DNA of 60,894 bases, filler included, from Sphacelaria rigidula (taxonomy: Eukaryota): assembly GCA_964200075.2 (NCBI GenBank). It is 3 parts of 3 records of this genome, joined end to end, with 100 filler letters (N's around TTAATTAATTAA, not from the genome) between each part and the next. Parts side by side here need not be neighbours in the genome. Positions count along the whole stretch, not along the records: positions 1 to 20,247 come from CAXNAA020000555.1; 2 more parts are not named here. The stretch is one strand, 5' to 3'. The notes under the pieces are model-generated. The model was not told the origin of the DNA and ran no database searches. It saw nothing but the letters and a program-made list of their open reading frames with translations. A program made the position numbers and the translations under genes. Shown in pieces: positions 1-40,686 of the stretch. How positions within the stretch are numbered: the stretch's first letter is position 1; the number at the start of each line of letters is the position of its first letter.

Positions 1-238
1 ATTTAGAACGTTTTTTAGGAGGGCACTTGCGAAACGGTGGGGTGATACGGTAACCCCCCCCCTTTTCAAACCGAAGTTCCCCCCCCCCCCCCCCCCGTCA
101 TGCCCATACGCGACGTCAATGATTTGATGTGCAACCATATTCAAGCTTCTGTCTCACACAACTACGGGTTTCCCGCTCCACCCAGTAGCCTACTGCGTCA
201 GTTCACAATCTGTGTCACTCTTGCTGTATGTCGCTCAC

Positions 239-3200
239 AAGTTAGTCAGGGCCGTCAGTCCGTCGAACACCCCTACAGGTAAGGTGGTGAGGAGGTCGTT
301 GAAGCTCATCCACCTGATGAGAATCGAAGCGATGGCCGCAGAGAGAAAACAACGGATCGAGATTTGCAAGGAACGAGGGACGGGTCGAATCAGCGTGTGG
401 CTGCGGGGAATGGCACATCACGATTTGAACTCTAGCTAGCTGTTGGCTCTACAAGCTCGCGTCCGCTACATGTGGCAGTCATAATCGTGAACACCCATGG
501 GTGAAAGGTGCGTGGCTGTACGACAGAAGGGAAATAACGTTCATTATAATACGCACTACTGAGTAATAACTCCTTCCTGTATCTGGACACGGCATGCCGG
601 GCCAGTGCACACGCGAGTGGGGAGACTGGCAACATCGTGCAACCGCCACCTGGGATATCATATGCACGTGGGATATCACACTCATGTGGGATATTATATC
701 CATCTGAAACATCCTCCATTGATATGGGTGTTCGCCTGAGATATCCAACTCGTATGTCCCTCTAGGGCATGGCATCCATCTGAAACCTCCACCTGAGATA
801 TCCATATCCCAGATGGCGGCTTCACGATAATGCGAATGAGGGCGCAAGATGTCGTATGTGTTGGTCTCTGCCGATGATCATCCGATGCATCTACGGTAGA
901 AATGCGCACGCATATATTGGTGGACTGCGAGCTGGATTGCTCCTTTCGCGTATCGCTCCAGGGCATCGCTTTCCTCCAAATCTACCCGAAATGGCACTCT
1001 GTAACTGTTTTTTGTTCTCACCAGCGTGTTTCATCAGCAGCATCTTGGAGAATATCCGAGGTGGCGAGGCGAAAACACCACAATATTTTGTGCAGTAATT
1101 TGCTTGAGTGATTGATTGCTCGTCGTACTTTAACTGAACAGTAAGCATCACTACAAATACCAGCACCCAAGCTCCATGCTACCTGAGACCTGAAGCAACG
1201 GCCGTTGCCTCGAGACCAAACGCAGTATTTTCAAACAGGCGGAGGCCAACACGTTATTCCTGGTATCACACTCAGGTGACAACCCAGAAATAATTGTCGA
1301 ATCTCTTCATTTTGCACACTAGAAAAAGCGCGCACGTGTACTGGATGGACGATTATCTTCAGTGCACAATCGTACATGATTCTGCTTATAGATATGGATC
1401 TACCAATGACCTGGCGCAGGTGCATGGAGCGGCACATCCCTCCACCCCCCACTCCCTGGCCTTGTATTTTTACTCAGTACATATATTCCACACCTTGGCC
1501 GGAACCACCATCAACATAAGCGCGCTGAATGCATTTGCAGCAGCTGAAGGGGCGACCTAACGCACGTAGACTTGATTCGTTAGGTGAGCTAATATCTTCC
1601 TACATCACTCCATTACGACGTGGAGCGGTCTCCAGCCAACTCCGAAATTCAGCCATCTCACTGCCTCATATTCACCACAGCAGTTAGACTATATCGACTC
1701 TGCCAAACCTCACCAATCCCTCAAAAACAGCGCGCATTTTTGCTTCAAGTCTGGCAGGATAATCTTGAGACATGACTACTGACACCCGCGCCCCTCTGCT
1801 CCTCCAGCAAAACGCCTTATTGGTTTGCTTCTCCGCCCATGTTCCTTGAAACCTGTCCCCTGCACGTGCCCTGTCTTGGGTATTGAGTTCATGGCACCAG
1901 TACTTGCCTTATAGTCTATTTGTTGCCAAGCATTGGAGCATGACTTTCACCACTCCCGCCGCCCGTCTCGTTTCATGTAAATTTATTTTTAATTGCCATC
2001 TCTTGCTCTTACGTGTACACACGCCGAAACCCGGAACAAAGCTCCTTCTGTAGGGATCCAAGGTCGCGGAGTCCGCCCAAAACAGTGTTGACATGCGAGC
2101 TCGACCAACGAGGCGCGGCAGTGTTTCATCAGTTGACTCCGTTAAATTAGACCCAGTTTGTGCGCAGCGCGCGACATAATTCCATGAGTCCATACAGACC
2201 TCACCCCCACCGAAACACTGGATATTTCTCCCATGATTGTACAAGGTTGTTGTATTGTACATTGATGTCGTCTCCGGCACCAAAAGTACGAGGAAACGTG
2301 GACAAGTGCGAGGTGGAAACGTGAGGCATTACAAACGAACTCACAAGACGTTGATGTTGTCTTTCCCGAAGGTTTCGAAGCACGGCTGGAAGAGAGGGCC
2401 ATCTGTGTCCACCAAATTGCAACCCGAAAGATCCCTGTAGGGTGGAGCACAGACGCGCAAATAGCGTGCAAGAGACGCACACAGGTAGCCAACGCGACAT
2501 TATGTCAGACGAGAACGTGCTTGCTCACGGAGCCCGTACTCCTTACAAACTGTCGTTCTGAACCATCAATCTCATTACAAAAATATTACGGCGACACTTT
2601 ATCTATAAATGCGTACTGAAAGAATCACACACGTCATCTTCTCTTTTTGACATTCCTCAGTGATATATTGCTCGGCGAAACGATTCTACTGGTGCTGTTG
2701 TAGTTACTGCCATAAAATTAGTGATGTATCTGACATCATTTCCCCTACCTCGGCTATCATTCTCACCGCTAGAAGCATGAAAATTACCGGTACCTCTCGC
2801 ACCCGAGTATGGAGCATGTTTATTGCTACCGCGGGTATATGATTATTTTTCATCATCGCCACAGTCCATCTCTGTCCCTGGATATTCACGTTGATCTAGT
2901 TTATTGACCACGGCTGGGAATCGCAGCACGTCAGTGCACGTTACGAGAGACAGCATAAAAATCAGCCGATCAACCGCTGAAAACATTGGATACGACCTAT
3001 CAAGCTGAAAGTACCGTGTCTCTGTTTAGGTCAACGGTATGAATCGTCCGTCCATTTAGGCGCTACTAGTCAATGCCACTTTCATTCTAGCGCTCGTCTC
3101 CTGTCATGTGCGTAGGCAGGGTAGTAGTGGTCAAGTTATACCCTAGGTACGTGTGGTGTTTGATGGCATAAAGAGGGGCAACATTGATCAAATGAAGGGC

Positions 3201-3563
3201 GGCAAGGTCGTCACGTCAACAGCGTTTGACCAATTTGCGCGCTAATGATGCTGCATTAGATTTCTTGCATCAACGACAAGTGCCGGAAACCACGACACCA
3301 TCCAACAGCTGCAAGAAAGCTATCGTACTACAGTTGGGGGAGTCACGACAACACTCCATCCACGAAAAATGATCGATCAAAATGCCAGCGACGTGGCGCG
3401 AGTCAAACGGTACTGTTCTGCGATATGCTGTTATGCCCCATGTCCATGAAACTGTCCATAGCACAGGTACGCACATCGCGAACTACTCACAGGGTCGTGC
3501 CGGATCCATCGAAGTTGCACCTGTAGTCCTCGTGGGAGCTATCCAAACAGGCATTCACATTTT
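239..3563 (-). CDS. LRR N-cap and leucine-rich repeat exons, continuing beyond the left edge
   Basis: 3491-3563 ENVNACLDSSHEDYRCNFDGSGTTL; 2345-2434 DLSGCNLVDTDGPLFQPCFETFGKDNINVL; 239-313 WMSFNDLLTTLPVGVFDGLTALTNL. The last matches the typical extracellular LRR consensus LxxNxLxxLPxGxFxGLxxL. All three have gtgag donors. Confidence 0.8.
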
Positions 3564-6500
3564 CTGAGGGACGGAAACACCGGGGACAAAGAAATGGACG
3601 AACAACAACCAGAACATTGTGTTATCCGACCCGATCCGATGCGACTCAATCCGATCTGGAGAACGTGGGTGTAACTGAAGAGTCAGTCGGCCAGCCACTG
3701 GCATCACGTTTACAGCCATCTCCTCGAGAGGATGCGTCGTTCTGCTCGCAACTGGTGCTGTCTATAGCGGACAGTTATATCCGTGTGTGAGGACGACACT
3801 CAAAATGGCACTCAAAATGGCACTCAAAATGGCAACGTTACAGCGCATTACTGAGAATAAACTGGCCCGTGCATGATTTGCTCAAAACGGTACGTCACTA
3901 CTCGGAATCCGCTGGCTACAGTAGTACCAGCGATGTTTCTCAAGTCAATGAAAAAAATCATCTCGCTCAACGGTTTTGGCTGAAAATGCACTGTGCCCTG
4001 TTGTGTAAGCGTGCATTTGTACATTGCCACCTCAGTTCAGCTGCCTATCAGTCGGGTCAAGATATTGTTCGTGGGAACCAATAGTACAAAGTACCGTGAT
4101 TACAGGGAGTAGGAGGGCGCTCGTGCATGGTGCGAGATTGGCCAGCAGCGTGTTTTGCCCAGAGTCCCCATCATTTTATCTTCAAATCGGCGACACGAGT
4201 CGATGGTCGAATGGTTGCACTGTTTTCATACGCTACCATTGCTCATCAACCCAACTCCTCCACTAAAACCTGTGGGGATGCACAGCAAGTTGCCCCGCAT
4301 CCGCGCGAACGTTATGATGACATTGCCTATGATATCCTGTACTCTTCATATACCACTACCAGCGGCGGTGGGGGTAGATATCGACGTAGTTGCGTCAGGT
4401 ACATGCAGTTGTAGCGTTGCAGGTCTCCTGTTAGTACCAGCAACATTCACGATTTTCCGTAAATTCTTGAAAATCGGAATGCATCGAACTCTTGACCCAT
4501 TCAGCGTCTAGAGCTATTTCACCGCATTTTGTAGAGTCGCGGGAATGCGTTATTCCCCACCAGTTCGAAACGCAACCTCACCAAAAACCCAGACTTCAGG
4601 GAAAATCCCCCGTGGTGTCGTGAACACTCATCTCGACTCCCATTGTCACAGGCGGTTGGTTGCCGCTCAAAATCGTTTCACCTACCAACGCAACCCCCCC
4701 CTTCAGCAGTAGCATCCTGGATACAGAATATGGCGGCGAACACGTCAATTACGGTGCAGATACAACCATCGATCACTGCCGGGTAAACCATCTCACCTGG
4801 TCCGCAGCACGTCGCGTCGCTGCATACTGGTGTGTATCCGCTCTCCTCGGGATAACAAAAGCCTCCCGTGGGAATCTCTCCGTCGGGACAACCCCAGAAT
4901 GAGCAGTGGGTTTCCGTGGTAGATACGACTGCACATACGATGACGTTCGCGCACACACATTTGGTGGGCTTTCACGCTACTGTATCGCACCTCCAAACCA
5001 TGTGCGATTTCCTCATGGAGGGTTTCGTGCGCATGCATACCCGTATCCTCGGCATGGGACACTAGACGTTCAGACATTTTTCTCAAGTTTTTCGAGTACC
5101 CGAGTAACCATCACGGCGACTTGCTTGTGTTTCAGGGCCGCTGTACCGTAACCCACACCCTCACGATTCACCATATACCCCACACACACATGGTTGGAGT
5201 GGTCTATCTTGCATCACGTACCAATACTCCTACGGACAGCCCACCTCAAGTTACAGGTCAAGGGGTAAACCGTGGCCGTTGAGTTGCCTCTGCCAATCTT
5301 TCCTATCGCTCGTGTGTTGCGATCGGATACCCGATTCGTAGTACACACCTGATCTTTCTAATAAATAAATAAAACGTGAAATAGCTAACCTTGACATCTG
5401 CTGGAGTCTTGCAATACCTAGGTCATCGTTATGTTACCCTTCCGTAATAGTCAGAGCAATGTTAAACGTTAGATTTGTGCAAAAACTGTGGCAAGCGCTG
5501 CTGCAAACACTGATACGGAACCTCTGCAGTGCTCGGGACGGGCATCAAGTAGCACGCCTGTGGCTGTGAGACCCCTGTTCGATTTGTTTTGGCGCCGTGT
5601 TCACTACAGGTGGCGACAGCACTCAAGAAATCACCCGTTAAGAAGTCGAGGCTCAGATTTTTCAAATTTTGAGAAATTCATGCCAAGAAATTTTGCTCAG
5701 ATCGGAGCGAAAATAAGGATAATAAATTGAAAGATGCAAGAGGCTCGGCGGATAATAAATCTGTCATCGACACTGCTGTCTTGGGAAAAAAGAAATTGGT
5801 CCCAGACCCATCAGCCCCTCGACGCAAGGATGCCCCCCCCCCCCTCTACCCCACTCAAGAAATTGGCCTTCGAAAAATTCATCATTGCACGTGTGCGGAA
5901 AGTAAGAATTTGGCTGTAAGAAACTATGCTTGGCTCGGCGAAAAGAATAAAACATGAGCTTCGCCTCGAATTAAAGTTTCTTGAGTACTGACGCCACCTG
6001 TATATCTGCAGACGAATACTTAACCGTCAGCACGTGCTCGTACTTCGGGCAGGTTTTCCGCCCCATGCATCCCGATCCCCGCGGACGTGTGGGGGGAAGG
6101 GTGTTCGACTCGCGTGGGTTCATCAACGCTAAATCCATGAACAAGCTAGTTTAGCCTTGGATGCGTAAGTGAACCAGTGACACAGTAAGTATCACAGAGT
6201 TCCCTCTGAGCCATCCCTGGGGTATGCTGATTTGTTATCTCATCTACTCCACGATGTAATCTCCCAAGCAAATTAGTTGTTTTCACCCCCTCCCCGCCCG
6301 TAAATCGCATACGTTTGCCGGGATAGGCAAGATTCGATACTGAACCGACTCACCGGTTGGTGCTGGTGTGGGCGGCAGGGTGCCCTCTGAAGACGATGAG
6401 AATCCAGTTACCAGTATTCAGCATGCCGCATTGTCCGTACACGCACAGTAGGGCAGTGGCGGCGGTGCGAGGTTGGCGAAAGAGCATTGTACGGTCAGAC

Positions 6501-9500
6501 GACACACTCAGCCGAGCAATCAGATGGTTGATTGAACTACATACTTGATGCTACAAAACGGGATTCCTCGATAATAATGTTGCATTGTTGTACTCATGAA
6601 GCGGAACAAAAGCACCGCAGCATGCAGTTTTCTCCAACTTTTTCATCCCGCTGCACGCCTCTTGAAGTAGCCCGGACGGTACCTCCAGTTTCGTTTATGA
6701 GGAAACACAAACCGGCTAGAGTGATTTGACGGAGGGAGCATTCGATTTTCGAGTGTCAGGTCATGTTTCTGTCCTATTTCATCACATGAAACCCCGATCC
6801 CTTCTCAGGGCAGATTTTTACTCTCAGGGGATCAACCCATTCCTCCTATTGTACTTGACTCACACCTTGCTATCGACCGCAGGATCACCACCCCCGCAGC
6901 CGGCCGAATTTCATCGGAATTTGATTTTGTTTCAGGTAACGTTTGGGTAATTTCGCGCGACGTAAACCGGGAGTAAAGGTCCATTATCATCGACACCGTT
7001 TTTTCGGAGATCTCTGAAATTTAGGCGTTTTCAGACCCAGCGCTTAACAATCTCCATCTCACAGAGAGGTTGCGAGAAAAACATTACCGTAGTTTTGAAC
7101 GCCATACACGGGTAGGCAGCATCATCCTGTCCTTCGTTTTGCCGGCGAAGGCGAGCAAACGACGAGATCAGCACGACGTCCGTAATGAGATATCTAACAG
7201 CAACAGTAGATCTCGATGATGATGGGCTCTTGGGAGCTCTCCTAAATTTGAGAACTTGTCTTGAAAAACATAGTATCTCTAATAATCGGCTGAAAATGCT
7301 CCACTGTCGGAGTCACACCTACAGAATCCTTCCGAAGTAGCACTGGCTGCTGGTACACCATCTTGACCACCGAAGTTGGCGTCAATTTTGTGATCAAGAC
7401 AAGCTAGGGCCATACATAGAGTCGGAGTTGGGCTAAGCAATACTCACCACTCTCGGATTGTCGGTAAACACTGATCGCGTTGCGTCCACCGCACTTCTCG
7501 ACCGGAGCACCAGGGCACTGGAAGGTGCACCCGTCAGACGGACCTAGCTCATCAGGCTCATCGCTGGCGGATCCGCAGTAGCACTGCAAAAGCACAAGCA
7601 GACACAATACGCAGTAAGTCCGACTACAGCCAAGATGTAGGAAGCAAGCGTCGGAACACACGTATTTCCGTTCACCCCCTTCGGTAGGCGGTGGCAAGTG
7701 TGCGAAACGGCGGCGACAGAGTGCCGGCGGCGGGAAGGAGTTGAAACTGCCCAGGAAGCTTATGACCACAGCGGCACAGCTATAGGCGTATGCCCCAAGC
7801 CGCCGACTACGTTTCGATGGCAGGAAAGATCAAATGAAATAGGCGTGCATGTCTGAGACCGTGTCACTCTTGACTTGTCCCCATAGATCATAGCACGAGG
7901 CATGCCAAACAAGCTAATAGTGTCGACTTGCCTAGAGCAAATGCGCTGTAGTCAGAGCCTCACCACAAATTACGCACTGCCGCACACTCATACCCGCTTA
8001 TGGTCAATAATCCAAAACGGGGATATGTAGGCGGATGTGGCACGCGGTACACGGTGGCTGCGAAAAATGCGAATCAGAAACGAAATAGTCGCACCCACCT
8101 CCTTGCCAAACTCAGTCCCGAACAGAGGATAGCCAGCGCAAAGCTCCGCACAAATCTGCCATCAGAGCATCAACGAAATACGCAGTACAGACATCATCGC
8201 GGATGAGAATGTTCCGGGTCGATCAGTGGAGACATCATCAGGAGCGATACCACCGATGAGGGATCTTTGGTATCCTCGAGACACCAGTAAGCTACTGGGG
8301 AAGGAAAATATATGTGGACATTTGTTTACGTGGTAATATCCTGCTGTTAAGATCCCGGTGTTCAACCTCGTCGAGCAAACCAGTAGCAAGAAAACAAGTG
8401 CCCCCACAGATAGTAAGGCGTGAGGACGATACGTAATCTGCTTGCGCTCAGCATTTGTTATGCACCCTAGGGCATTGTTGGCTGATTCAAACATGTAGAC
8501 TACTCTTACCACCAAACCAACCAAACACTAACATTATGTTTCGGTGCGCCTCGGTTTTGAAGCCCCCCGCGAATTAAGACGGGGACCTACACTGCGAACG
8601 CACACGTGCGTTACGACAAGTAAAGCCAAACACACGCCGTTAATGTGAGACAAACACATCCCGCCGTATTACCGAACACGTGGACCATAAGGTACCCCTT
8701 CGCCGTCGAAGGTTTCTCATTTTTCCGAGCGAAATCCAAGGTTTCTCGCGCTTTACAGTGTTCTGTTCTCACATCCGTGGTCATGGCGTCATCCCGGAAG
8801 TCTGCCGCGGTCAGCACGCGGTCACGAGTGCTGTCGATGTAGCAGCCGTCAACGGTGTAGTCGGCGAACCTGTACACGTTGATGGCATTACGCCCGCCAC
8901 AAATCTCTTCAGAGTCTCCAACACAAGGTACCGTGCAAGCACCAGACTCACCCAGTCTCGCGGGATCATCGGACGAGGTGCCGCAGAAGCACTGTCGTGA
9001 ACGTTCAGGAGACAACGCGCGGAAACACAGAGGAGGGAATGTTTTGGGGCGGAGAGAGGGCTGAACATCTGTTTCTTATTCCACGCTTTTACCCTACCCC
9101 GTCCCCGCGACGAGTCCATATTCTCAAGGTACACAGTAATATTTTCTTCCCGTAGCCTGCGCTACTTTCTATTACCCACAATTCGACTAATACGCCCGTA
9201 ACGCGGGGATTTACATCCAATCATCTTCATCGACTCCCATTCTGACGCTTTCGGAGGACGAAAATGGGGGCCACTCTACGATCAGGATTCGACCCCGTAA
9301 GAGGCCCTCAAAGTTTTTACATACGTCATTTTCACCATCGGGAAGCGGTCGTCATTCACGAATAAAAACCAAGCTCAAGGCTCCAAAGAGCGGTGGGCAG
9401 CTGAAAAACGCACCCGATGTTTACAAACATGTGGATGAGATAGATGCGGGAAAATATGCGTGAATCTCAACAGTCATTGACGATGCCAAACTTTAAAGGA

Positions 9501-10525
9501 AGTAAGAGGGTTCAGAAAAAAAAACGCAGCAGCGAGAACTGTCGCATCAGGAGGTAAGGTAAGCGCTGATAGGCAGGAGCAGATACGGGGCGGCGTAGGT
9601 GGAGGTAGGTAATCAAGAGATTGAAACGACTTCTGGGGGATCCGCATCATCACTCAAGTGCAAGGCGTCGAGGGTTTAGAGACTAGGCGGAGGGGTGGGG
9701 GTAGTTGATGGAGTGAAACGACCACCACCGTGATTGCGTTCTCAAAGTAGTGTGCACAGTGTGGAGATACAAAACACCGTCCCCATTTTAACATCAACGA
9801 GAGTCCAACAATCTGCGATCGATATCCGGTACGTACTGCAGAAATTTCGGCCACGGTCAGAGGCCGCCGTACTCCCAGGAAACAGCCGAAAACATAGCTG
9901 GGGGACGCACATTTGCCTTGATCCTCAATTGGTGACAAAATTTCATGCATGTTGAGGTCGATCTGTCTTCAGTACAGGTCTGTATTTCTACGGGTTGCAA
10001 TATGGAGGGAGATGCATGTCCTTCTCGAAAACAACACGTGAGCTCGTACGAAAGTGACGACACCGCGCACCACTGTCGTATCTAGTTCTAGTCTAACGAT
10101 ACCCTCAACGTGAGAGCACTATACGGGTACTGCATGAATTCCCCCTCCCTTGCTGCGGTCCATCGTCAGCTCATCCCTCGAATACTCGTCGACATCGCAC
10201 ACGACGCCTCACTGAGGTTACGGCCCTGGTCTAAGGAAGCGCGCAAGGAAACGGTTCAACCCGGTCAGCTCGCCTCGTTATTGTTGGACATGAAACCACT
10301 CACCTCTCGACCGAACTCAGTTCCGAAGTATGTCGACCCTTCACACAACGCTGCGCACACCTGCTCCGCCGAAGTCGGCCAAGTAGACACACGACAGTTT
10401 CACACAAGGAAGGACGGCCGCGCGCGGAAGAAAGCACACGCGTATTCAGTGAAGGGCCACGGCGGACCTGACTCCAACATATTTCTGGATGTTGGCGTTT
10501 ATAGTTCCGCTAGAACCGGACCCAT

Positions 10526-10556
<31 letters not shown>

Positions 10557-13500
10557 CGTCGCGACGGGGTGATGGAGGCACATGCTCGGGGATTCATTTA
10601 TCTTATGTCATGGGTTCGTACCAGGTACCGGGTGAGTGAAATTGGCACAACAGAAATACCTGTGCGTGCTGTTGCATCAATCACATGGCAAGTGCCGTGT
10701 ATTACACGAAGGGAACAGTAACACCCTGCAACAAAGACGGCATTCTCGTGATTTCTCCTGCCCCGTTTTTCCCTCTTCCTCATAATCAATTCGGCATTAT
10801 TACAGGTGATCCCGGGAACAAATCCAGGAACCCACAGATGGATACGAATCAAAAGCATCAACACCGCGATCTCTGATGACCTGAGAGGTTGGACATAAGG
10901 TGGGATAACGTGCACCAGCGGCGACCCTAGTTAAAATCTAGCACACCATCAAACACGACAAACGATATTCCCTGAAAAAAGCACGCCTTTAAGCACAAGC
11001 ACCATTAAATGCACAACATAAACGCCAGAATCTTTGGCCATATCGTGTTTCACCTCCGCTGTCATGTCCGGGGTATTTTTATGTTCCGACCCGGTCAAAA
11101 CTCGATCGCGACTGCTATCCCCCCAACACCCGAGGGCCACATAGCCGCCATTTGTCGTAGGGGGCATTGTGGGAGTAGGTGGGTCTGTAGGCGGCGGTGC
11201 GGTCGGAGAAAGGTCAAAGGTCGGAGAAGGAGTCGGTGCTGGTGTCATCTCGTCGACCACAGGCTGGTAGCTTGCAATGGTGTCCTGCGTTAGATTTACG
11301 AGATTGTAGAAGCGTTGGTGCAGATGGAAGATAGGAGGGCGGGTACGGTGGGGCACGACAGGAAGGGGAAGACGAAATAAACGTTCAAGCGGTATTTGTA
11401 AACAAGGATGATGTATTTCAATCGAAGTGAAAAACATCATCCGTGAACGCATACGAACTGCAGATCGACTCAAAACGATGGATATCGATACCCGAAATCT
11501 GCCAGCAGAGTACCACGGAGAATCTCGCTCAAGGCTGATGATGTCTTGGCGCCAACACAGTAAATCGCTTTGAGGGGAGAGGTGGGTGTCACATTGGGAA
11601 ATTTTTGACGGAGGATTAGGGGTACTTTCCATTTTTCCGGTGGAATGACAGGATGGCGGACGTTTCGGCACACGAATGCGGTACGTGTACTGCAGAACGG
11701 TTCTGACGCGCGCGCGCTCCCTGAAAACGGTACTATCTGTACCATACAGTTGTGCACCATCGCAGGAGAAGGCATGACAGAAATCGGAATATGTCAGCCG
11801 AATAGCATTGTGGACAACCGAGTTCGCGCGAGGAGCTGTGGAAAATAAGAAACAAAATGTATTGCCAAAAGCTGTCAGGATCCTCACTCTGTTACACGTT
11901 GTACGGGTGGTGTCTCGGTAAGTAATCGCATAGACGGAGAATTGGGAGATGACTCCTCGCCCTATCCGCTCGAGACAGACGGCAACATTTATGGTAACGT
12001 TGGCTCAATCGCTAGGAAGGCTTCAGCCACAAATAGTTGCGCACCTCCCGTGGGTCTCGTGCCACATCAATTCACTTTCGCCCTACTGTTCATGGCATCA
12101 TTATGCAAGGGCGCTATATCAACCCTACACGTACTGTACTGTTGTATCAGTTTCCTCTGAGTAGCCGCAATCCACTCTGAATCCCACGATCGAAAGAATG
12201 TGAAGTACTGCGGTAACTCACCATGTTCTCTCTGATGGTTCTGGCGCAATCAGCCGTTGCGGTGCCGGTGGGCTGCTCAGCGTAGAGGACGTCCGGATTG
12301 GAGTAGTGATTGATCCGCGGGGCCGAACGAAGGTCAGGGCAGCGCTGGCTCCTCAGTGTGCTGAACCTGAAGGTTTTATACGCGCACAACAAGTACATCA
12401 CATGGTTTGTATATGTTGTTGAGGAATGGTATTTGATTATTCCTCACTACTTTTTCGGGGGGACGCGCGGAAGTGGAGGGAGGGGGGGGGAGGGGGGGGG
12501 GGAGGTCGGACCCAGGACAGAGCTAAAAACAGTGATAGACAGTGCGTTTATTCATAAATGTAATAATTACGCGTGATTTTTTATTTTGTCTACATTACAA
12601 CGCCTGGACAAGGTTTGTGCCGCATAGGCCCCACAGATGTCAGCAACCGGTGTTCGCTTTTTTCTGCGCTGTAGTTGACTAAATTTAGTAACTTTTACGG
12701 GCAGATCGCTCGCTTTGACAAATAAAGGCGACCGTACAAAGGTAACCTGCATCGTCACTGAGGTTATGAACCTAGTCAAGTCAGCCCAGGGACCTCGTCG
12801 AACCAAGACTAGTTCTCCCTCCGCACCCCCCCCTCCCGTTCCACCTGAACGATGAAGCGATACAGTCATCTCCGCTGTTAGGCACTGTGATGAATCACAG
12901 TACAGTACACTTCACTCATCTTTGCAATGAGTTTTACTTGTTATCGTCAGCCCGTTTATACCAGGAGCCGTCGCATCTGAAATGTTCATGCTGAATGCAG
13001 CCAGACACTGCAGAGACAAAACGGTGTTGTGCACGACCTATAACGGCTCCACCACAGGGGAATTTCGGATCAGTGTGATACACGGAGACTGCTATGTGCT
13101 GCGATGTCTTAGACTCCTTCATTCCAGAACTGTTTTGAGGAAAAACCAATTCGATACATCACGGAACGTCATATGGTGAAAAACAGATACTGGCAAGTAC
13201 AGGGAAGAAAAAGCGATTGTTTGCACAGGCATGTGAGGAAATATTGCCACCGCAGAAGGGAGCTTTGAGCCTTGGATGGGTGAATGGCGTACTGGGTGAT
13301 TGGCTACTCGAAGAACAGGGAGTATGACAGGATACCACATTTACGACAGAGCACAACAAGTTCCGCATGTTTCAGATTTTTGAATTAGAGCATGCCATGC
13401 TCTATTTGAACGGGTGTTCTGCCAACGAATGGAAAACATGTTTTAAAAATTGGCGGAGAATACCTTATTGGTTTATTGATTGTCTGTCACACTTTAGCTG

Positions 13501-16500
13501 ATGTGAACTAATAGTTTGCGTGTGCAGGTACCAGGCACACGAGTTCCAAAGTGAATACATATATATACATATATATATATATATCATATCATATGTCTTG
13601 TCGCACGTGTGCACAAGATGACAATTTCGCTGAAAAAGTACAAGCAGAGTAAAGCGGCCCAGCAATAGTCAAGACTTCGCTTGCTCACGGGAAATCTCCT
13701 TCGCAGACGCGGTAGCCGTGGGCATACTCCGTTTGGAAAATGCTGGCGTCTTCCGTGTTTGTAAAACAACCCATGTTCAGGCCGAACACGTCGGACTGGT
13801 AAAGCCCGTCGATGCACGAGGCTCCAACGACGGAGAAGCCGGAGCTCGGTAGTGCTGTGTAGGAGTAACTGCAGGCATACGGTCGGGAGCGGGCAGGGGA
13901 GTCGAATTTAAAAGTGTGCTGAGGGTGTCAAGGTATAACAATAATCACTGAGCTACCAATCTTAACAGAGGGAAAAGGTGATGGTTTGATTGATTATGAT
14001 TGTCGCACTTTGACAGACCCCCCCCATGCTCCGTCTCGAAAGGGATGCGTGGTCAATGGTCAAACGACTAAGGCAAGCAATAAATGAGTACGTTCCCCCC
14101 TCCCCCAGGGATCCAGCCGTGGATAGACGTACCCGAGACAAAACAAAAACAAAACACGCGCCGAAGAAAAAATAAGAAACATATGAGGTAGAAAGTGCTC
14201 AAGGGGAATAAAATCCTAACATAGTTTCTCAGCATAACGGTTTTCATGGATGTCATTGGCGAGACCGCTGACGCTCGGTGTAGGGTTTACACTGAAGGAA
14301 CAACACCACGGAGAGCAATAACAATTCAACATGAAGGCGTAAAAAATATGTATCCATGGTGGCGGAAAGCAAACACGGAGGGAGCATGGCAGCATTTCGC
14401 CAACGTCTGATTACCAAATTAAAAACACAAGAATCACGCCTTACGCTCGGAAATAGTTGTTCGTGGTCGACCGTAAAATATGAGCCGACTGGATAACTCA
14501 TTCATCGATGATATTCTCGGCATCACCCCTCCCCCCCCCTCCCCCCGGTCCCCACCCTTCTCCTTCCACTCGCTCTACGAATGTTTTGTTTTTTTACAGG
14601 GGCAGTTCTTCTCTTTCCCCTTGTAGCACATCAACACTTACCCGATGCTGCAGAAGTCGGTGAAAGCGCCAACCAGTTGCACGAGGTCTGCTTGGTACGT
14701 GTTGCGCAGGGTAGTCACGTCGTCGTTCGCCCGCATGTTGTCGAGTGCACTGATGGCGCCGCTGTCATCGTCGCCGGGGTACTGGGTAGCAGGTGCACAT
14801 GTAGTAGGTGACGGACAAATCACCAAACAGCGTCGCACGGGAACAAAAAATCACGGCTGGTGAAGAAAAAAAACTGGCGGTGAACCTGATATACTCCAAA
14901 ACTCCGATATATCGTACAGATACAATACATCTAAGAAGAACCAGAACCATCTGAATACCACCTGACCACAGTGGCAGAGTTGCCAGGTAATCTACGGATA
15001 TTGATCAAATAAGCGGGTTTTGCAGCGGAGATATGCTCACCCGTTCCTCGGGATATCTGTTGTGCACCTCATGATGTACATCCGGCTGGTCATCGGTGCT
15101 AATTCAGAGTGTGACGTCAACAAGACGCCGAAAGCTGAGTGGAAAGGGAAAGTAGTGGGGGACTCGTTGCGAAAGCGATTTTGCTGCACTGGTGTCGGGG
15201 CATGATATGATAAGCGTGGGCGGTGGTGCTGATACATGATTGATTCATGAGCAGCGACGGTGGTGCCGTACTCTTGTCTTCGTGTTTCTTTGTTCGAGCT
15301 AAAGCATGCGTCATACCCCTGGGTGTGCAATTCAAGAACGTGTACATGTACGAACAACAGTGGAGCGATGTTCGGCAGCGGTAGCGAGAAATGAGAGAAG
15401 AATGACTAGTAGCCCAAAGGGTGATGATCTGTGCTGAGTAGGCGAAAGGTACGACATACGCGAGCCGCTTCGTGGTAAAATCAGCAACAGCATTACATCA
15501 GCTGCATGCTTCCCGCCGAAGGTAAAATCGACGATTAACAGGACAGCCCTGGGGTATGGTGACTCTGGGAAGAGATTATTGTACGCCGTTCTTCATCCGA
15601 TTCATTTTCCTGGCAACGTCACGTAAGTAGCCAGCCTCTGGAACCACTGTATTCCCACAACGTATGTAATACTGTATCTAAGTAAGGCACTCCCCGCCCT
15701 TATGGCGAGCATCGTAGTATTCACATTTTCCTCTATGAGGGTAGCAAGCAAGGTAGAACGAATGACCCGTTGGAGTAACCTTGAAATGTGATCTTCCCGG
15801 TCCCTCTGTCGTATGATAGTACAGCATTGAAATGACGACCCTGTACGCAAAGTATCACAAGGCGGAAAAAGCACGTGCATGTCTGTTTCCCCGATTCAAA
15901 ACCTCAATCTCTTCAAATCGGGCACATCCATACGCTCACACGAGTTGGAAGACGTCGAGCAGGTAGAAATCGACAAAATATATATCAACATGCGGCGCAA
16001 GTACAGAAATCTGCTACGGTAACCGCAGAACCTCGGCCAAGTCCGAAGCATAGGCCCGGCCCCCGTTATGGTGCAGTTCCCTTGCTCGCCAGATATATCT
16101 CACCTGCCTGTGGATACCACACATGTCATACATTCTGTTTTTTGTCGCACTTTGAACCCCTCCCCGTTCTCGGGATGAGTCCGTGGTCTCAGGGGAGCAA
16201 CCGCTTTCCCCCGGTACACGCCTTGCGTTTTGGTCTCGCGGATTGGATCATGACTATCAGCACTCCCGCACCGCGCCAACTCACGTCAAACAAAGCCAGT
16301 CGACTACTTTGTTTACCCACGTTCTCTCGCTTTCCACGGTGGAAATCAGACATTACGAAGAAAAAAACCAACGCATCGGGAACCGAATCCTCGTTCTCTC
16401 CGCCCTGATGGCGACAGTCGGACCGTTACGCCACCTGGGTGCGGCGGTAGCCTAGAAGCTAGTATTGCCAACGCCATACTCGGTGTTGTTGCAATCTTGC

Positions 16501-19500
16501 AAGTTCCCGTACACAATACTTTGTGTAACGAGGCGTAAGGGGTGCCGTAAGAACAAGTCACACCCCTGAACGCCGAACCTAACTTCGGTGGTGTTTAGTT
16601 TGATGCCGTAGATTCGTCATCGTAGTATATGTTTAATTCACCGCGGGGCTCTAGATCACAGTGAGATGGACTGACTCACAAAGCCGATGAACGCGAGATT
16701 GAAGGTCAGCGAGATGAGCGAGTTCTTGAATGCATCGTTCGTCGAAAGCAGGCCTGCGAAGATGATGGAATTCATCTGTGCGGGAGAGACGCCACCCATC
16801 TGAGTCATCGCCGCCTCATTGAACAGATACATCACGTCCACCTGCAAGGGCGCGTTCAAGTGAACGAGACACCGTTTGAAAAAGGATCAAAAGTACGGGG
16901 AACGAGGGAGACAGAGAGGGGTTCCGTTAGTCAATCTGTCTTGGATGAAGGAAGCTAGGGGGAAAAGGGGCGACGTTTACCTCAACGCGGGAACGCCGGT
17001 CGGGAGTCACAGTTCGAAACGGGCTCAGATTCTCGGAACGCGGACCGAGCTGATCAGATCCCTGACTGGAAAAATAACGCAAAAGGGGCGGCGGCAGGGA
17101 TCGGCATTGTTGGGCCGAATGCCCGTGCCGAAATTTCAGGCACCATCCGAGCGCGACCAACTTACATCGACGGATTCCGTCTGCAGCGCGCGGGTGCCCG
17201 AAGTGCGCAGGCTTCGACGTCCTCCAGGTGAGCTAGTGGTTGTGGCAGGGGAGGGGGTAGTACTGCTGGGTATGGGCTCTGACTGCTCGGGGGTGCCATC
17301 ATCCAAGAAAGCTGCGGTGGTGACCTGTTGTTATATTATAGGGGCCACAGTGCAGCGATAGGCGGTGGGCATGCACCGCATGAGAGGAGGGGAAATATGT
17401 CATTAGAAGCAATATTAATACGTCAAATCAAGAAGCGTTCGGTGAACTGGCATGCGTATGGATGTCCGCGGGTACTCATTGGGCGGTCACTGAATCCAGC
17501 GTTAGGGTTTAGGAAAGTGCGCATGTGATTTTGGCCCATCGTGGGACTCCAAGAGAAAGAGCAAAAAGGATACGTTTGTGAGCAGTCGGGAGAACGAGTA
17601 GATCGTCTTCATTTCGATTGTTGTTGAGAAAAAGGTTATTAAAGGTGCCATTCAGTGATCGCCTGAGACCGCAGAAGCACAACCGTCCAATCACCCGCAA
17701 GTGCGGTCACTCCGATCTCACTGTGAAATCCTCACCCGCCCGAGTAAGTACGTATAATATCGCCAGTGCTTAGGTTGATCAGTTGATCCGGGTGTAGGTA
17801 TTTGTGGTGCATGCAGACACTGTTGAGCTTGATTACAAGTGAGCACACGATTAAGGCAGTATCCCATGCTAGCACAGCACAATTCGGTGTTGCTGGTGAG
17901 ATACAACCTTAGGGATAATATCGCCGACATCACGCATCAGCATGGACAGCACGTTGGTCTGACACTTCCGCGCTCTGCGAAATTACGGGGTTGTTCATCT
18001 CTCCTGCCTTACGCGACGGACTCGTTGGAAGAGGCATCACCTGCACCAAGCAGCTGTCGGTATCGGGTGCAAAGTCGCACGGGATGGACTTGACCACAAC
18101 GGTGCTCCCGTCCGTCTTGAATGAGGTCATCTTGAGCGAAAACGTCTGAAGGTAACAGCAATGCCGAGGGAAATCGCGTGAGCAGCACCGTCGGGTACAG
18201 TCGAGGCACAGGCACAAAGCGAGAACGGGAGTGTTGTTGGGCGCTGCTCAAGCGTCGAAAGAGTCAATTTAAACCCTCCGTTAGCAGATAGATGCGATCG
18301 CTTATTCGCTTGGCTGTGCAATAACCTGTGCGTTTATCCGCACCCTCCACGCACGTACAGCGACGTAACGCACCGAAATCAAACAAAATAATGCATCACC
18401 TGCCATTTTCCCTCTATCAACTCGCGTACCCAAGGGTTACTATAGCAGCGCATCGCGAGTATTTACGTCGTCAGCGACAGGATCGACGTACGGGAACGCA
18501 TTCCACGGATATCAAACACTCACATGCGCTTCATTCTCGGATAGTGAAACACGTGTACGAGTTTACGCCCCTGCCTGTTAACACAGTTGTTGCAGAGACG
18601 GCCCCCTGCCTATTCAGGGCATGATACATGCGCTTTGCGTAGTTCCACGTGTCCACGGCGTTGCGAGGAACCCGTGGGTATCCGTGAAGGGCATTCATGA
18701 GGTTCTTACCTGGCTATCGCACGGATCGCCCCAGACCATGCTGACGCTGCGGGGTGCCGTCTCGTCATCGCCTTGTGCAGGGATGCTAACCGTCCCAGTC
18801 CATGCCTATTTGAGGAGAACGGCACAAAACATTTAATTTTCGCAGGTCACGTGAACAGCAGTCTTGCGTTGACCAAAGGTCGAGATCGTCCCATATCATC
18901 AAAACTGAGTGCGGAGTGAATACTATTAAGAAGGAAGAGGGAACCGTAACTGTCGCGGAAACGAATCTCACCCCTCTCTATGCTTTACTGTGCTGCAGCA
19001 TTTGGTTATCCTTATTTGAAGTACTGACAAAATATCACCAATTTGTTAAATGTGTCGTTGTCTTGCCGTGGTTGTCTGCACATCTAGTCCACGACCAAGC
19101 GATGGACGACGACATATCCTCGTTGTTCATAGTAGACATTTGCCGCTGTTGTAAACCAAAAGCACGTACTCTGGGCATCATACAACGACAGGCTCACCTT
19201 ACGAGTGATGCCGTCGTCGAAGTGAGAGCCATCCATCGTGCTGTAGGAAGCCTTGTCCGCAGTAATGTTCTGCAGGCATTCGACAAGGGGAAAATCAAAG
19301 GCGAGGTGCTCGTATGAACAGCGGGCTCGCATCACTACAAGAGGAGAGTGCGCCCGGTTCATCGTTGTATAAACGCCATCTTATGGTATAAGACCTACCC
19401 TGCAGTCTGTCACCAGGTATCAATACATTGCCATAGTTGCACACGTCTGTACTTCTTGTCCAAAACGTCTCCTCAAGTAAACCTATCCAGGGAGACGCAA

Positions 19501-20042
19501 GTGGCATATTGTTTCAAGTGAAACGGTTTTGGGTAGTAATACAGGCGTGACCGCACCGGGCTCGGATCCTGCGCTACCCACGGTAAATGCACGAAGAACC
19601 AGTGATACATGAAACGTGTCAGGGATTTCATACTCTACTAGATGTTCGCTTCGTCAGAGGTACCGGTGGACCCCGCATGTTGCAGCAGACTGGGTTGTGC
19701 TAGGTGCTCATCATGTGTGGATGCCTATAGACATTAAACGGCGGCTGTCGCAGAAATCAACCAAATACCTGTTCGTAGAACTACAAACATTTGTAGAGGT
19801 GAAGATAGTGTTGTACGTGCCTAAAAGTGCAAACCACACTCGATCCCAGACTTCCGTATACTGCCGTAGGGATAGTATAGCAGCAGGATTTTTATCGGAC
19901 ACGCGTAATTTTCGTCAAAATGTCGCGTATGACTCAAACGTACTAACCTCAGCCGAGCTAATGGCGATCGTCAAGGTAGCGGCGTCTTCTGCCGAGTCCA
20001 AGTACGCGCAATCAACCGCTCCGAGTCGCACGATCTCGCTCA
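239..20042 (-). CDS. Multidomain protein, probably extracellular: prodomain + catalytically dead metzincin-like domain (M72 peptidyl-Asp / M12B reprolysin-like) + Pro/Thr linker + 2 WSC + Cys-rich module + LRRs; 5' and 3' partial
   Basis: 19 phase-compatible exons with canonical AG/GT ends, in transcript order: 19948-20042, 19198-19269, 18710-18805, 18041-18145, 17166-17324, 16680-16841, 14642-14781, 13689-13868, 12222-12366, 11054-11284, 10304-10360, 8773-8991, 8099-8155, 7448-7583, 6354-6386, 4797-4928, 3491-3563, 2345-2434, 239-313. Total 2257 nt, about 752 aa, no in-frame stop. The start/signal-peptide exon was not found (gap at 20248), and the gene runs off the left edge. Confidence 0.8.
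650..815. repeat. GATATC-rich degenerate internal repeat, probably a TE remnant
   Basis: Repeated GGGATATC/GAGATATCC and duplicated CCATCTGAAAC motifs. Confidence 0.5.
3797..3834. repeat. 12-bp tandem repeat (CACTCAAAATGG)x3
   Basis: Directly visible. Confidence 0.9.
5607..6000. mobile_element. Tc1/mariner-type MITE, 394 bp, intronic
   Basis: TIRs CAGGTGGCGACAGCACTCAAGAAA and TTTCTTGAGTACTGACGCCACCTG, with TA on both flanks (5605-5606, 6001-6002). Confidence 0.85.
7448..11284 (-). CDS. Pro/Thr linker and two WSC carbohydrate-binding domains
   Basis: WSC1: YVALGCWGDSSRDRVLT...MTAE|VCAALCEGSTYFGTEFGRE|CFCG...CTVPCVGDSEEICGGRNAINVYR. WSC2: YTVDGCYIDSTRDRVLT...MTTD|ICAELCAGYPLFGTEFGKE|CYCG...CTFQCPGAPVEKCGGRNAISVYR. 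Both have the full 8-Cys WSC pattern. Confidence 0.92.
12222..16841 (-). CDS. Metzincin-like pseudo-protease domain exons of the 239-20042 gene
   Basis: Exons translate to VDVMYLFNEAAM...TNDAFKNSLISLTFNL, LRNTYQADLVQLVG...CSIG, GFSVVGASCIDGLYQSDVFGLNMGCFTN...YAHGYRVC and FSTLRSQRC...RINHYSNPDV...PTGTATADCARTIRENM. This is the scaffold of peptidyl-Asp/reprolysin-like metalloproteases, but without HExxHxxGxxH. Confidence 0.8.
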
Positions 20043-20247
20043 CTGCGGTAACAGCGGAAGCCACGAGGTTGCTGCGTTAAGGATTGCGATCTTGGCACTG
20101 GACTACGTTGCGCTACCTGGGGAAATGGAGTGCACTTGTCTCGTACACTAACAATATATTTATCCTGCATATATGGCACAACACGAATGGCCGGCGCATG
20201 GCCATGGTCTCCGTAACCCATGGGGATAGAATGCCCCCCCCCCCCCC

Positions 20248-20347
20248 NNNNNNNNNNNNNNNNNNNNNNNNNNNNNNNNNNNNNNNNNNNNTTAATTAAT
20301 TAANNNNNNNNNNNNNNNNNNNNNNNNNNNNNNNNNNNNNNNNNNNN
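20248..20347. other. Assembly gap with artificial six-frame stop linker
   Basis: 100-nt N run with TTAATTAATTAA at 20292-20303. Confidence 0.97.
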
Positions 20348-22689: not shown

Positions 22690-25600
22690 TAGTTTCCTTG
22701 TGGATATGCTGATGGTCCCCAGAAACGACCAGCGGGTATGGTAGGAATCTGGTCGAATGTGTGTTTGTAAGGCAGGATTCGATTCCCTGTATAATTTCGG
22801 CTGGGGTTGAAGCCAAGAGGATTGTACCCTATTAGTCGCGTGTACCTATCGACAGCCTTGACTTCCAAAAGGTACGGCGCGTCACGGTGATTTTGTATTA
22901 TGACAAGATTGTAAGCAGGACAGACGGATGTACGAGAAGCAGCACCCCCCTGCCGCACTCGAAAACCCCGACCTCAGTCTTCAGGCCTAATTGGATACAA
23001 GGAAGAGCTTTGCTCATCAGCTACCCACCGATCTCCTGTCTTCAGTGTCGCGAGTCCACAGCCTTATTGACGTGAGTCTTAGCTGTGCTGTACTATATTG
23101 ATATGTTGTGTTGCCGTGAAAAGTACGCAGCGAGGAGGATCTGTTTGGCGTGTGGCGCCGAAGTGGGGAAACAAGTTCGACTCTTGCAGATGACTTAGTC
23201 CCAGAGCAACACGGCCGTTGTACTTGAACGAAAAATTTGAGTCACCCATACCCCGAGCACACATCTTCACCTGATTGTCACCGAGGTACCCGCCATCGCC
23301 TCCAACCCACTTGACGCGGGGGTTAACAGCAATTTCATCTGCCATCAGTGTCCACGTCAGGGGTCCCTCGTTCATGATAGACACCAAGTTCCCGATGTTG
23401 GACTCCAGAGCTGCTTTTATGGCAGCGTCGGCGCCCGTCGCGCACGTCCAAAATTTCGGCACCTGAGAAAAAAGACGGGTGGAAATGTCAATTCACGGGA
23501 GAAGAGGTGCGCTCTGCCAACATCTGTGGAGCGCACAACAACGACAACAAATCATTTACGAAGAAACACTTCCCTCGATCCCGGCCTGCTCTTCCAACCG
23601 CACTTCACGTTGCTGTTGCACGATATGAGTAACGATCGTGCTGAACATTTCAGCTTTTTCTACCAATTTGAAAATACCGCCATGCTTACCTTGCCGGCTC
23701 GAAGCTGCTTCTGGGTCCAGCTAACGCTGGGCATGCCGGCGGCTTGATGGAGGGTGTCGAGTAGAGAAGGGCCTCCTATCCTCATGACGACAGTGGCAAG
23801 GTGCAGGTCTTTACGGTCGTAATTTCGAGCGGAGTACTGCCGGTTCACAGCGCTCTCCAACGTCGCCAAGATCGCATGAACTGATTTGCCCTCTCGCAGA
23901 GCTTGTCCAAATATGCGCTTTATTCCACCAATGTCTTCGCTGCCGACCATCATCACTATACGTTTGTGGATATCGATGTTCTTTACCACAATCTGTCTTC
24001 TCTTTTCCGCGTGCTTGCTTTGTAGACGGAAGGCCTTCTTGTCCACGTAGTGAAACTTGGCGCGGTCGATGAGCTGCGATCGCGTGAGGTAAGCGTAGTT
24101 GAGAGAGTCCAATCTCTCACCCTCCCTTCGCCGACGCCATACTGCACGCGTCTTGATTGCTGCGATCAGACATACGGGTGAGCGGGGAAAACGAGGGCAA
24201 TTACGGTGGAGTATGGCAAGTACGTTTCGTGTTCCCCGAAAAAAATCGTTGTGAGTTGTGAAACCCCAGGCAAAAATTAATATCAGTATATGGGTACAAT
24301 CGAGTGCTGCCGATGGCACAGATTGGGGCAAACACCAGGTGCCTTGCGGTAATTGCATTCCGTCTGTCGCGCACTCTTTCCACAGACTCATTTCGGTGCA
24401 CTTTCGAGGACTCTCACCTTGCAGTTGCGTGTTGTATTCGAGGTCGGAGCAGACGTTGCACGGGGCAGGAACGGACTCCGTTCTGGTGCATATGCCAGTG
24501 CAGCCCGGCGATGTTGGGTTCTTCAGCGCGTGCAGATACACGGCTCCACCGGCGCACGAAAAAGACCACGGTGGGGAAGTTGAACGCTGCGTGTGCAACC
24601 CACACGGATATTGGTCCACAGGGATGAATTCGGCGTCTTCACCCTCGACGTGGTACCGATACCCCGGACAACGGGCCCCGAGACTTGAAACACCACAGTC
24701 GGGCGGGGCTTCAGGAATCGACAAGTCGCACACGTTTGCCTCCTCAACTTCCTCTTCCTTCTCTTCCTCTACCTCCTCTTCCTCTTCATCCTGCCTGTAT
24801 CTCTTCTCCTGCGTTCGGCGCGCTCCATCGATTCCCTGATGGGTATGTTCACCGTGGATGTGACGTGGGCAGAAGATGTTGAGCTTGAAAACAGAGAATT
24901 ATCTGGTTCTAGAGAGTTTCGGAACCGAACATTTTTACCAAAAAAAAAAAACTCTCATCCTTTTATCGGGCGCTAGGTTGAAGACGTACGTTATTTCTTC
25001 AGTTTTGGGCTCAAAATTGTGTTTTCCGAAACTGCAATAATTTCATGTCGCCAACATATTGTGTTCCCTTTCCCTAAAAAACTAATAATCCACTCCCAGC
25101 ATCCAGACCCAACCAACCGACCAATTGATGAAATTAATTTAAAAATATTTCATTCATCAATTAATTATTATACGAATCACATCGGCATTTACTTTTATAT
25201 TCGATTGCAGTGCCTACCGTTGACCTAAAGATCACCCCCTGTATTCACTGTATCCTCAAATTCCTGTGCACGAAGAACGCTGCACTCTCCATATATACCG
25301 CGCATAGGCATATGTCCACAACAGTTCATCTACCACTTCTTTATGACGCGAGTTTCGCCGTCGCTACAGGTTTGTATTACCGTATGCTTCGGCATATTTC
25401 AACAACCTGTGGGGGTGTTATATACCGTCATCTCTACAGGCCGTGATGTTTATCGACGCCTCACTTGGCACTGATTTGATATGTCACTCATGTCTCACCG
25501 GTGAGATGCTGATGCCGTGTGCTGTAGTACGTTATGCCGGAGGCGGTTCCCATCGCCGAAGTTATGGCCGCAAGGGCACAGCCACGCCCATTCATCGATG

Positions 25601-28343: not shown

Positions 28344-34664
<6,321 letters not shown>

Positions 34665-35626
34665 GATTGTTGATTGAGCTGGCCTAGTGTTCGCTTTTTG
34701 TTGGTTTGTTGGAGGTGGGTGTCGTGTTGTGTTGAGCGGTGCGTGGCACGTTCCCGGTAAAACGTGTTGATGTGGTGTCCATTCCTGTGACATCTTACGT
34801 ACGTCAAAACAAGAAGAGGATACATCGTATAAGTATCGTACTGTACTGTATGGTCGATAAACCAAATACCAAATTATACAGATTTTACTTCTTCGCAGTT
34901 TTATTTTGCTCGCCGCGCGTGTGACAAAAATGTCAAAACAAATCATGAGCACCCCTCATAACATGTCGTTGATCAAGAAATAATGTGTTCCCCACCTACC
35001 CACGCCCGTGCTTCGATTCCACGCTGCGAAATTTATCTAGTAAACTGTGGGCTACTAGAGGAAAGATGGGAGATTGGTAGTCATTCACTGTACTCCCACT
35101 AAAGGTATCTACTCCAACTCGTGGTCCCCGATATATTTTATATTTTCATCTTTGTATATAGAAAAGAGATGAACTGGTGAACTCATCCTCTTTCGCACGT
35201 GTGTGTGTGACTTGTCGAGGGTCCTTGCCATTTTTATATGTTTTATTTTTCATGCGCCCATTTTGGGTAGTTTTGAGCCTGTACCCACGAAAAGCGCCCC
35301 CCTACCTGTTGAAACATTAGCAGTGCATACTTTTTTTTCGGCAGTCAGACAGAGAGTACTAGTTATAGGTCGGTGGGAATTATTTTTTAACGACAAAGAC
35401 AACAACCACATCTTGACTACAGTACAACAATCCTTTGGGGGTGATAAATAAAAAACAATTACTCCGAAAAATCAATAGGAACCGGCTCTCAACTCGCGCC
35501 GTATCTAAAACAACAGTAATAGCAGCAGATCATAGGTACAACAATAGTGCAGTCAGTAAATACTCGAAGACAAACTCAACAGGGTACATTGAAATTCTGA
35601 CAGTATATATCTTGTAGCGTTTTGCG
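34665..35626. promoter_or_regulatory. Divergent (bidirectional) promoter and 5' UTR region
   Basis: About 960 bp between two head-to-head ATGs (34664 minus, 35627 plus); relatively AT-rich. Confidence 0.55.
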
Positions 35627-40586: not shown

Positions 40587-40686
40587 NNNNNNNNNNNNNN
40601 NNNNNNNNNNNNNNNNNNNNNNNNNNNNNNTTAATTAATTAANNNNNNNNNNNNNNNNNNNNNNNNNNNNNNNNNNNNNNNNNNNN
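40587..40686. other. Assembly gap with artificial six-frame stop linker
   Basis: 100-nt N run with TTAATTAATTAA at 40631-40642. Confidence 0.97.

Follow-up and report, generated by a model that had tools for sequence, protein, structure and literature searches.

A stretch of 60,894 nucleotides from the brown alga Sphacelaria rigidula (assembly GCA_964200075.2; hereafter the window) carries on its minus strand, from position 20042 to 239, a single spliced gene in which a prodomain and an apparently dead metalloprotease domain are followed by two WSC domains and the beginning of a type II leucine-rich repeat (LRR) cassette. At a probability of roughly 0.5, we favor the view that its product is an extracellular, wall-tethered binding protein acting as an adaptor, and that the gene arose through the shuffling of phase-1 exons. 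The window is a concatenation of three unrelated contigs separated by N-TTAATTAATTAA-N linkers at 20248-20347 and 40587-40686, and neighbourhood across the linkers is therefore meaningless; its positions 1-20247 are a single contig (G000:C555) of a 244 Mb assembly of 27,214 contigs. Reading of the minus strand over window positions 1-33000 defined 19 exons, all with an AG acceptor and a GT donor, whose in-phase union without a stop, proposed in an earlier note made from the sequence alone, encodes 751 residues. The exons have a GC content of 58% (68% at third positions), as against 49% in the introns. Exon 1 opens at a phase-1 acceptor, and the window holds neither a start codon nor a signal peptide for the gene; at the other end the contig terminates 238 bases past exon 19, with nothing to the left of position 1. 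Since the contig ends here and, on the upstream side, gives way to the linker at 20248..20347 (N44-TTAATTAATTAA-N44), the gene is truncated on either side and its upstream exons lie outside the window.

That these exons form one gene is established by assembled contigs from sequencing runs, which were compared with window positions 200-20199; such contigs are graph paths rather than single molecules, and no expression level was derived from them. Runs X6, X7 and X9, from three samples of one study, were taken to be transcripts on account of the GT-AG joints they contain, their RNA status being a guess that is not on record, and X1 is a DNA run. The intron-skipping joints listed include 15 that correspond to junctions 4-18 and are present in X6, X7 and X9, each with CT..AC ends on the plus strand (GT-AG on the minus strand), on a single contig and at a single depth in every run (245.9 in X6, 646.9 in X7 and 303.9 in X9). 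Because the depth value is identical, the downstream joints and exons 5-14 can be assigned to one record; junctions 1-3 are not among the listed joints, and the depth bins of exons 1-3 equal the same contig depth multiplied by exon length. None of the 15 joints was found in X1, the long pieces of which tile the stretch without differences and are continuous over 200-5714, 5879-7018 and 7188-10516. The joints leading from the WSC to the LRR part were seen at 6386/7448, 4928/6354, 3563/4797, 2433/3490 and 310/2342, so that all five junctions singled out by the note (7448>6386, 6354>4928, 4797>3563, 3491>2434 and 2345>313) are present in the three RNA-like runs at full contig depth. Its further observation that no new start or signal peptide intervenes between the WSC and LRR parts also holds: the interval from 7447 to 2435 offers seven ATG-plus-hydrophobic candidates, and not one of them is a start placed within a spliced exon. 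The gene is real, spliced and expressed as a joined transcript. The transcript contigs, of 5029, 3131 and 5174 nt, have 269-398 nt preceding exon 1, and run 2503, 507 and 2519 nt, respectively, beyond exon 19. Very high-copy short repeats occupy introns at 14018-14105 and 16150-16390, where read depth is thousands-fold that of the gene in both DNA and RNA runs.

The N-terminal part places the gene, by descent, within a brown-algal family of reprolysin/M72-like proteases. A profile built from exon 8 together with 14 paralog exons recovered 231 proteins at E<=0.001, and the zinc motif is intact in 138 of the 150 best listed. The best long matches come from the brown algae Sphacelaria, Ectocarpus, Scytosiphon, Nemacystus, Undaria, Ascophyllum, Pylaiella, Hapterophycus and Choristocarpus; the brown-algal homologs carry Pfam Reprolysin_3/4/5 domains, and one Ectocarpus member is labelled as MEROPS M72. 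A paralog in the genome matches a protein assigned by its source to Sphacelaria rigidula. The gene is 30-37% identical to many homologs over residues 4-391 (E down to 1e-62), and a homolog profile matches the model over residues 5-392 (E 2e-106) with the fold-bearing columns retained. Particularly informative is P0164 of Ectocarpus fasciculatus, which is built of a leader, a prodomain, a protease domain with an active motif and a pair of WSC domains, and can be aligned to model residues 4-613 (32% identity, E 2e-89). This protein and other brown-algal reprolysin-like proteases share with the window gene the succession of prodomain, protease and WSC pair, but P0164 retains a complete zinc motif and ends after WSC 2, whereas the window gene appears dead and continues into a Cys-rich module and LRRs. 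In five full-length homologs a hydrophobic leader could be recognized by eye, with 70-85 residues ahead of the exon-1 equivalent. The predicted structure of P0164 has pLDDT values that for the most part exceed 90 in residues 41-210 and 271-490, its WSC part being unreliable. The catalytic part of this model matches CpaA (Z 24.8, rmsd 2.0, 199 aligned), the pro and catalytic parts together match profragilysin (Z 19.0, rmsd 4.2, 299 aligned) and the ADAM17 zymogen (Z 18.7, rmsd 5.1, 302 aligned), and the model also matches ADAM22 (Z 15.5, rmsd 3.9, 191 aligned). An adamalysin-type fold with an ADAM/fragilysin-like prodomain is thus predicted on the basis of the homolog's model, and not one of the window protein.

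The prodomain is encoded by exon 1 (19948..20042), from which alignments begin at residue ~73-88 of the homologs, exon 2 (19198..19269), placed by the in-phase model and paralog comparison, exon 3 (18710..18805), placed by the model and homolog alignment, and exon 4 (18041..18145), which is additionally covered by transcript contigs. Exon 5 (17166..17324; model and transcript contigs) is a low-complexity linker with an R-x-L-Q motif at its end; 8 of the 9 homologs shown have R/K-x-L at the equivalent place and all 9 have a basic residue before the L, and the motif is likely to be a prodomain processing site. The protease-like domain spans exons 6 (16680..16841) and 7 (14642..14781), both backed by the model, transcript contigs and homology, exon 8 (13689..13868) and exon 9 (12222..12366), the last two examined by comparison with homologs. 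In exon 8 the sequence DVFGLNMGCFT replaces HExxHxxGxxH: all three zinc-binding histidines and the catalytic glutamate are substituted (H>D, E>V, H>L and H>T relative to the active P0164 in the alignment). The Met-turn, too, is gone, exon 9 having LRS where homologs have IMS, VMS or IMA, even as the cysteines and core residues of the domain are retained relative to the homologs. The domain is accordingly predicted to be catalytically dead, in agreement with the note's diagnosis of a dead metzincin, and the idea of residual proteolysis was discarded, since none of the four catalytic positions keeps its residue. Among the 16 exons scanned, no Pfam match to a disintegrin or Cys-rich/EGF domain was obtained, and it is a stalk and the WSC domains that follow the protease-like domain.

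What the note overlooked is that the loss of catalysis predates the fusion and is common to a paralog clade devoid of LRRs. The genome contains at least 20 matches to exon 8, of which 9 are intact, 10 are degenerate and form one group, and one (C18042) is separately damaged. A tree was built from 37 catalytic domains, leaving out C14502 (too short) and C12740 and C6970 (contigs without exon 8); in it the 10 dead copies form one side of a branch with support of 100/97. C18042, which has lost the second histidine and is unlabelled in the tree, falls among the active copies and represents a separate loss, and the dead Undaria protein P0149 is placed elsewhere, pointing to an independent loss. Short open reading frames of other algal homologs (P0005, P0008 and P0016) also have degenerate zinc motifs. 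The loci of the dead reprolysin-like WSC clade are L047-L057, L065 and L072, with nine intact paralogs alongside; its contigs without LRRs are G000:C2279, C11258, C1566, C15762, C18865, C9274, C786, C12617 and C9411. One of these dead paralogs has an in-frame stop in its WSC exon (G000:C1566:4905-5117) and may be a pseudogene.

Ratios of nonsynonymous to synonymous change (dN/dS) were obtained by the Nei-Gojobori method on tblastn alignments and are approximate; alleles may be present among the near-identical contigs. The window gene compared with 8 dead paralogs gave values of 0.34-0.44 over 106-204 codons, and its prodomain gave 0.23-0.38 against four of them. Seven pairs among the other dead copies ranged over 0.30-0.76 (three of the seven at 0.51-0.76), and three active pairs, restricted to copies with undamaged motifs, over 0.12-0.28. 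Selection would thus seem to have been relaxed, and not to have stopped, since catalysis was lost. Such purifying selection on the dead domain lends indirect support to the note's proposal that it binds rather than cuts.

Downstream of the protease-like domain, exon 10 (11054..11284) encodes a Pro/Thr stalk (65% P+T+S) and the start of WSC 1, which continues through exon 11 (10304..10360) into exon 12 (8773..8991), where WSC 2 begins, to be continued in exon 13 (8099..8155) and completed in exon 14 (7448..7583); exons 10, 11 and 13 are supported by the model and transcript contigs. The two WSC domains of the note stood up to scrutiny: exon 12 matches PF01822 above the cut-off (29.2 bits versus 27.8), exon 14, holding half a domain, matches below it (E 3.5e-4), and each joined domain has 8 cysteines. 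WSC domains are described as putative carbohydrate-binding modules in the available part of PMC12879055. A scan of metagenomes with exon 12 gave 354 pattern matches, none of which was confirmed. Six paralog contigs include the last WSC exon, and in each of them it is directly followed by a stop; the other paralog contigs end before that exon or have no visible WSC, and exons 15-19 have no match on any of the 21 paralog contigs. Exon 14 of the window gene ends in a phase-1 donor, the likely fusion point, and read-through beyond it would meet a stop after 14 codons. It is followed by two phase 1-1 exons known from the model and transcript contigs, a 33-nt Pro/Thr linker (exon 15, 6354..6386) and a six-cysteine module (exon 16, 4797..4928). 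The latter matches no Pfam family and gave no usable match in an atlas search. Searches for homologs of the short exons, whose negative outcome carries little weight, returned 11 and 1 candidates, none of them scored. A search of the genome for a close parental copy of exons 16-18 found none, which suggests that the join is not recent.

The LRR part opens with an N-cap made of exon 17 (3491..3563, phase 1-2) and the 90-nt exon 18 (2345..2434, phase 2-2), and the first repeat is exon 19 (239..313, 75 nt, phase 2-2), beyond which the gene runs off the contig. Exon 19 fits the type II pattern xLxxNxLxxxxxGxxxxxxxLxxL with one inserted residue, and does not fit the type I exon pattern GxxPxxLxxxxxLxxLxLxxNxLx of ROCO proteins and type I immune candidates. 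The exon-modular LRRs of the note are hence represented in the window by a cap and one full LRR exon, and the array it implied is not seen there. According to the available part of PMC3341825, the type II exon pattern is found in seven Ectocarpus LRR-kinases and also in LRR proteins without a kinase. With the brown-algal type II LRR-exon proteins and receptor kinases, as presented in the accessible portions of PMC3341825 and bioRxiv 10.1101/2024.02.19.579948, the window gene shares the LRR pattern and the layout of one repeat per exon; it differs in having ~700 residues of pseudo-protease and WSC domains ahead, and an exon 19 that is one residue longer. A template for the cassette is offered by another, apparently stand-alone gene of the same genome (G000:C3919; loci L077 and L078), which has a homologous two-exon N-cap with the same phases as exons 17-18, including the 90-nt exon, followed by about 12 type II LRR exons, a C-cap and two phase 1-1 Cys-rich modules, with no kinase found by exon scan after the LRRs up to the contig end. 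One Cys module of this gene is 50% identical to repeats located after the protease domain of a homolog from Ascophyllum, and phase-1 modules therefore seem to be exchanged between the LRR and the protease genes of these algae; the window gene is best read as a product of such a swap. The C3919 gene was rejected as a 3' continuation of the window gene, as it carries its own N-cap and is not linkable. Tandem type II LRR arrays are present at G000:C1572:2500-10500 and G000:C5689:170-4500, in ~1035-bp exon-plus-intron units that share 83-93% DNA identity and differ mainly near the conserved Asn, a sign of recent array expansion. These two contigs were likewise discarded as continuations, for their upstream DNA is common to the two but has no counterpart in window 1-2500. 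DNA and pattern searches with the left end of the window contig matched that contig alone.

We envisage that a signal peptide on one or more missing first exons, as suggested by the homolog leaders and the unseen 5' length, would direct the protein to the secretory path, where the ADAM/fragilysin-like prodomain would aid folding and then probably be cleaved off at the R-x-L-Q motif. Attachment to glycans of the wall or of microbes may be provided by the WSC domains, the dead domain could bind, without cutting, a peptide or glycopeptide of the kind that its active paralogs cut, and the LRR cassette would supply a second, protein-binding surface, such that the protein would bring together a surface bearing glycans, a ligand of protease type and a partner of the LRRs. 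The nearest solved relative of the catalytic domain in both sequence and fold is CpaA, the M72 O-glycoprotease of Acinetobacter (PDB 6o38), which also has putative glycan-binding modules (available part of PMC7542363). CpaA is, however, active and bacterial, is only ~22% identical and has Ig-like repeats in the place of WSC domains, and its substrate preference is not transferable. A functional parallel is furnished by ADAM22-type inactive ADAMs, in which a catalytically inactive reprolysin domain serves as a binding surface, that of ADAM22 binding the ligand LGI1, itself an LRR protein (accessible part of PMC5906670). They differ in their disintegrin/EGF domains, none of which was seen in the window gene, which has its LRR in the same chain; the likeness would be one of analogy and independent origin, and not of membership.

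Several points weigh against this picture. Some 2.5 kb of the C-terminal transcript lies out of sight, and an anchor in the membrane or a kinase encoded there would turn the protein into a receptor instead; the extracellular binding role is a prediction from sequence, and the predicted fold is that of a homolog of the window protein. Constraint appears relaxed, as dN/dS is higher in the dead clade than in active pairs, and limited searches found no ortholog of the fusion. Finally, CpaA, whether active or inactive, showed no binding on a glycan array in the part of PMC7542363 available, and glycopeptide binding by such domains may hence be weak.

A membrane receptor with an integrated dead-protease decoy, in which ligand binding by the dead domain or the WSC domains would be signalled inward through a transmembrane helix after the LRRs, with or without a kinase, strikes us as rather unlikely. 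The type II exon pattern that exon 19 shares with Ectocarpus LRR-kinases speaks for it, although its presence in non-kinase LRR proteins blunts the argument. The 2503-2519 nt past exon 19 in two contigs could accommodate an LRR array, a cap, a stalk and an anchor, and a kinase only tightly. Yet the template gene has Cys modules and no kinase after its LRRs, and the 751 visible residues contain no transmembrane segment (top 19-residue hydropathy 1.13). The sensor, receptor ectodomain or integrated decoy put forward in the note is thus a candidate role, the C-terminus lying off the contig. It also counts against a receptor that long 3' untranslated regions are usual in brown algae. The fuller form of this idea, an independently evolved integrated-decoy receptor with both anchor and kinase, sensing protease substrates, inhibitors or wall damage, we consider improbable.

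A further reading is a regulator of the alga's own active paralogs, in which the dead domain would compete for their substrates, or the freed prodomain would inhibit them, and the LRR part would target this brake. The coexistence of nine intact paralogs bearing the same WSC tether with the dead clade, and the conservation of the prodomain, are consistent with it, but it explains the LRR part no better than does a wall-tethered adaptor; we find it quite improbable. That the gene is an idle, expressed chimera, its LRR tail a passenger on a WSC pseudo-protease gene, would agree with the lack of a fusion ortholog among 191 homolog proteins or 21 paralog contigs, and with the stop in the WSC exon of C1566, which indicates that the family does decay. 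Exons 15-19 have nevertheless kept their reading frame, cysteines and splice sites, their splicing is seen at a contig depth equal to that of the other exons, and the join does not look recent, all of which renders idleness very improbable. The least probable account by far is that of two genes, or an assembly artefact, with occasional read-through. In its favor are the stop soon after exon 14, the graph-path nature of the contigs and the derivation of the RNA runs from one study; opposed to it are the full-depth linking joints in all three runs, the continuous DNA pieces, the absence of a start in a spliced exon and the phase-1 acceptors of exons 15-17, which require an upstream exon.

Elsewhere in the window lie a cyclophilin gene on the minus strand at 28347-34800, in the contig next to that of the fusion gene, whose last exon matches PF00160, and a 412-codon open frame on the minus strand at 23660-24898, Cys-rich, without a Pfam match and transposon-derived in appearance.

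As to novelty, the prodomain-protease-two-WSC order appears already in active Ectocarpus relatives, whereas the LRR tail seems to be new, as an arrangement of known modules in a single gene, and the pseudo-protease clade is apparently undescribed. The note's impression of an undescribed architecture therefore survives for the tail alone, the rest being the ordinary architecture of a brown-algal family. An LRR motif (by pattern) was found in 0 and a WSC domain in 4 of 191 homolog proteins, and an LRR family was listed for none of 34 matches of a homolog search with domain annotation; the protein search scored 8000 candidates of up to 1547 residues and missed the genome's own paralog proteins. 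No description of the architecture emerged from the literature searched, which lay mostly outside subscription journals, and Tables S3/S10 of the bioRxiv study may list one; in the part of the PMC3341825 supplement available, terms for WSC, peptidase and metallo first matched only in sheet 2, and not in the Ectocarpus LRR-protein sheet. In brown algae five WSC orthogroups and LRR receptor kinases are expanded (accessible part of bioRxiv 10.1101/2024.02.19.579948), and the ligands and partners of their extracellular LRR and WSC proteins are given as unknown in the available portion of PMC8307928. Against this background, the gene provides a transcript-supported case of brown algae building mosaic extracellular proteins from phase-1 modules, and belongs to a dead-protease clade that has been retained and expanded alongside active paralogs. 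The active and the LRR-less dead paralogs constitute built-in controls for asking whether algal pseudo-proteases are binding modules, and if the unseen end were to prove an anchor and kinase, the gene would represent a decoy-type receptor outside plants and animals.

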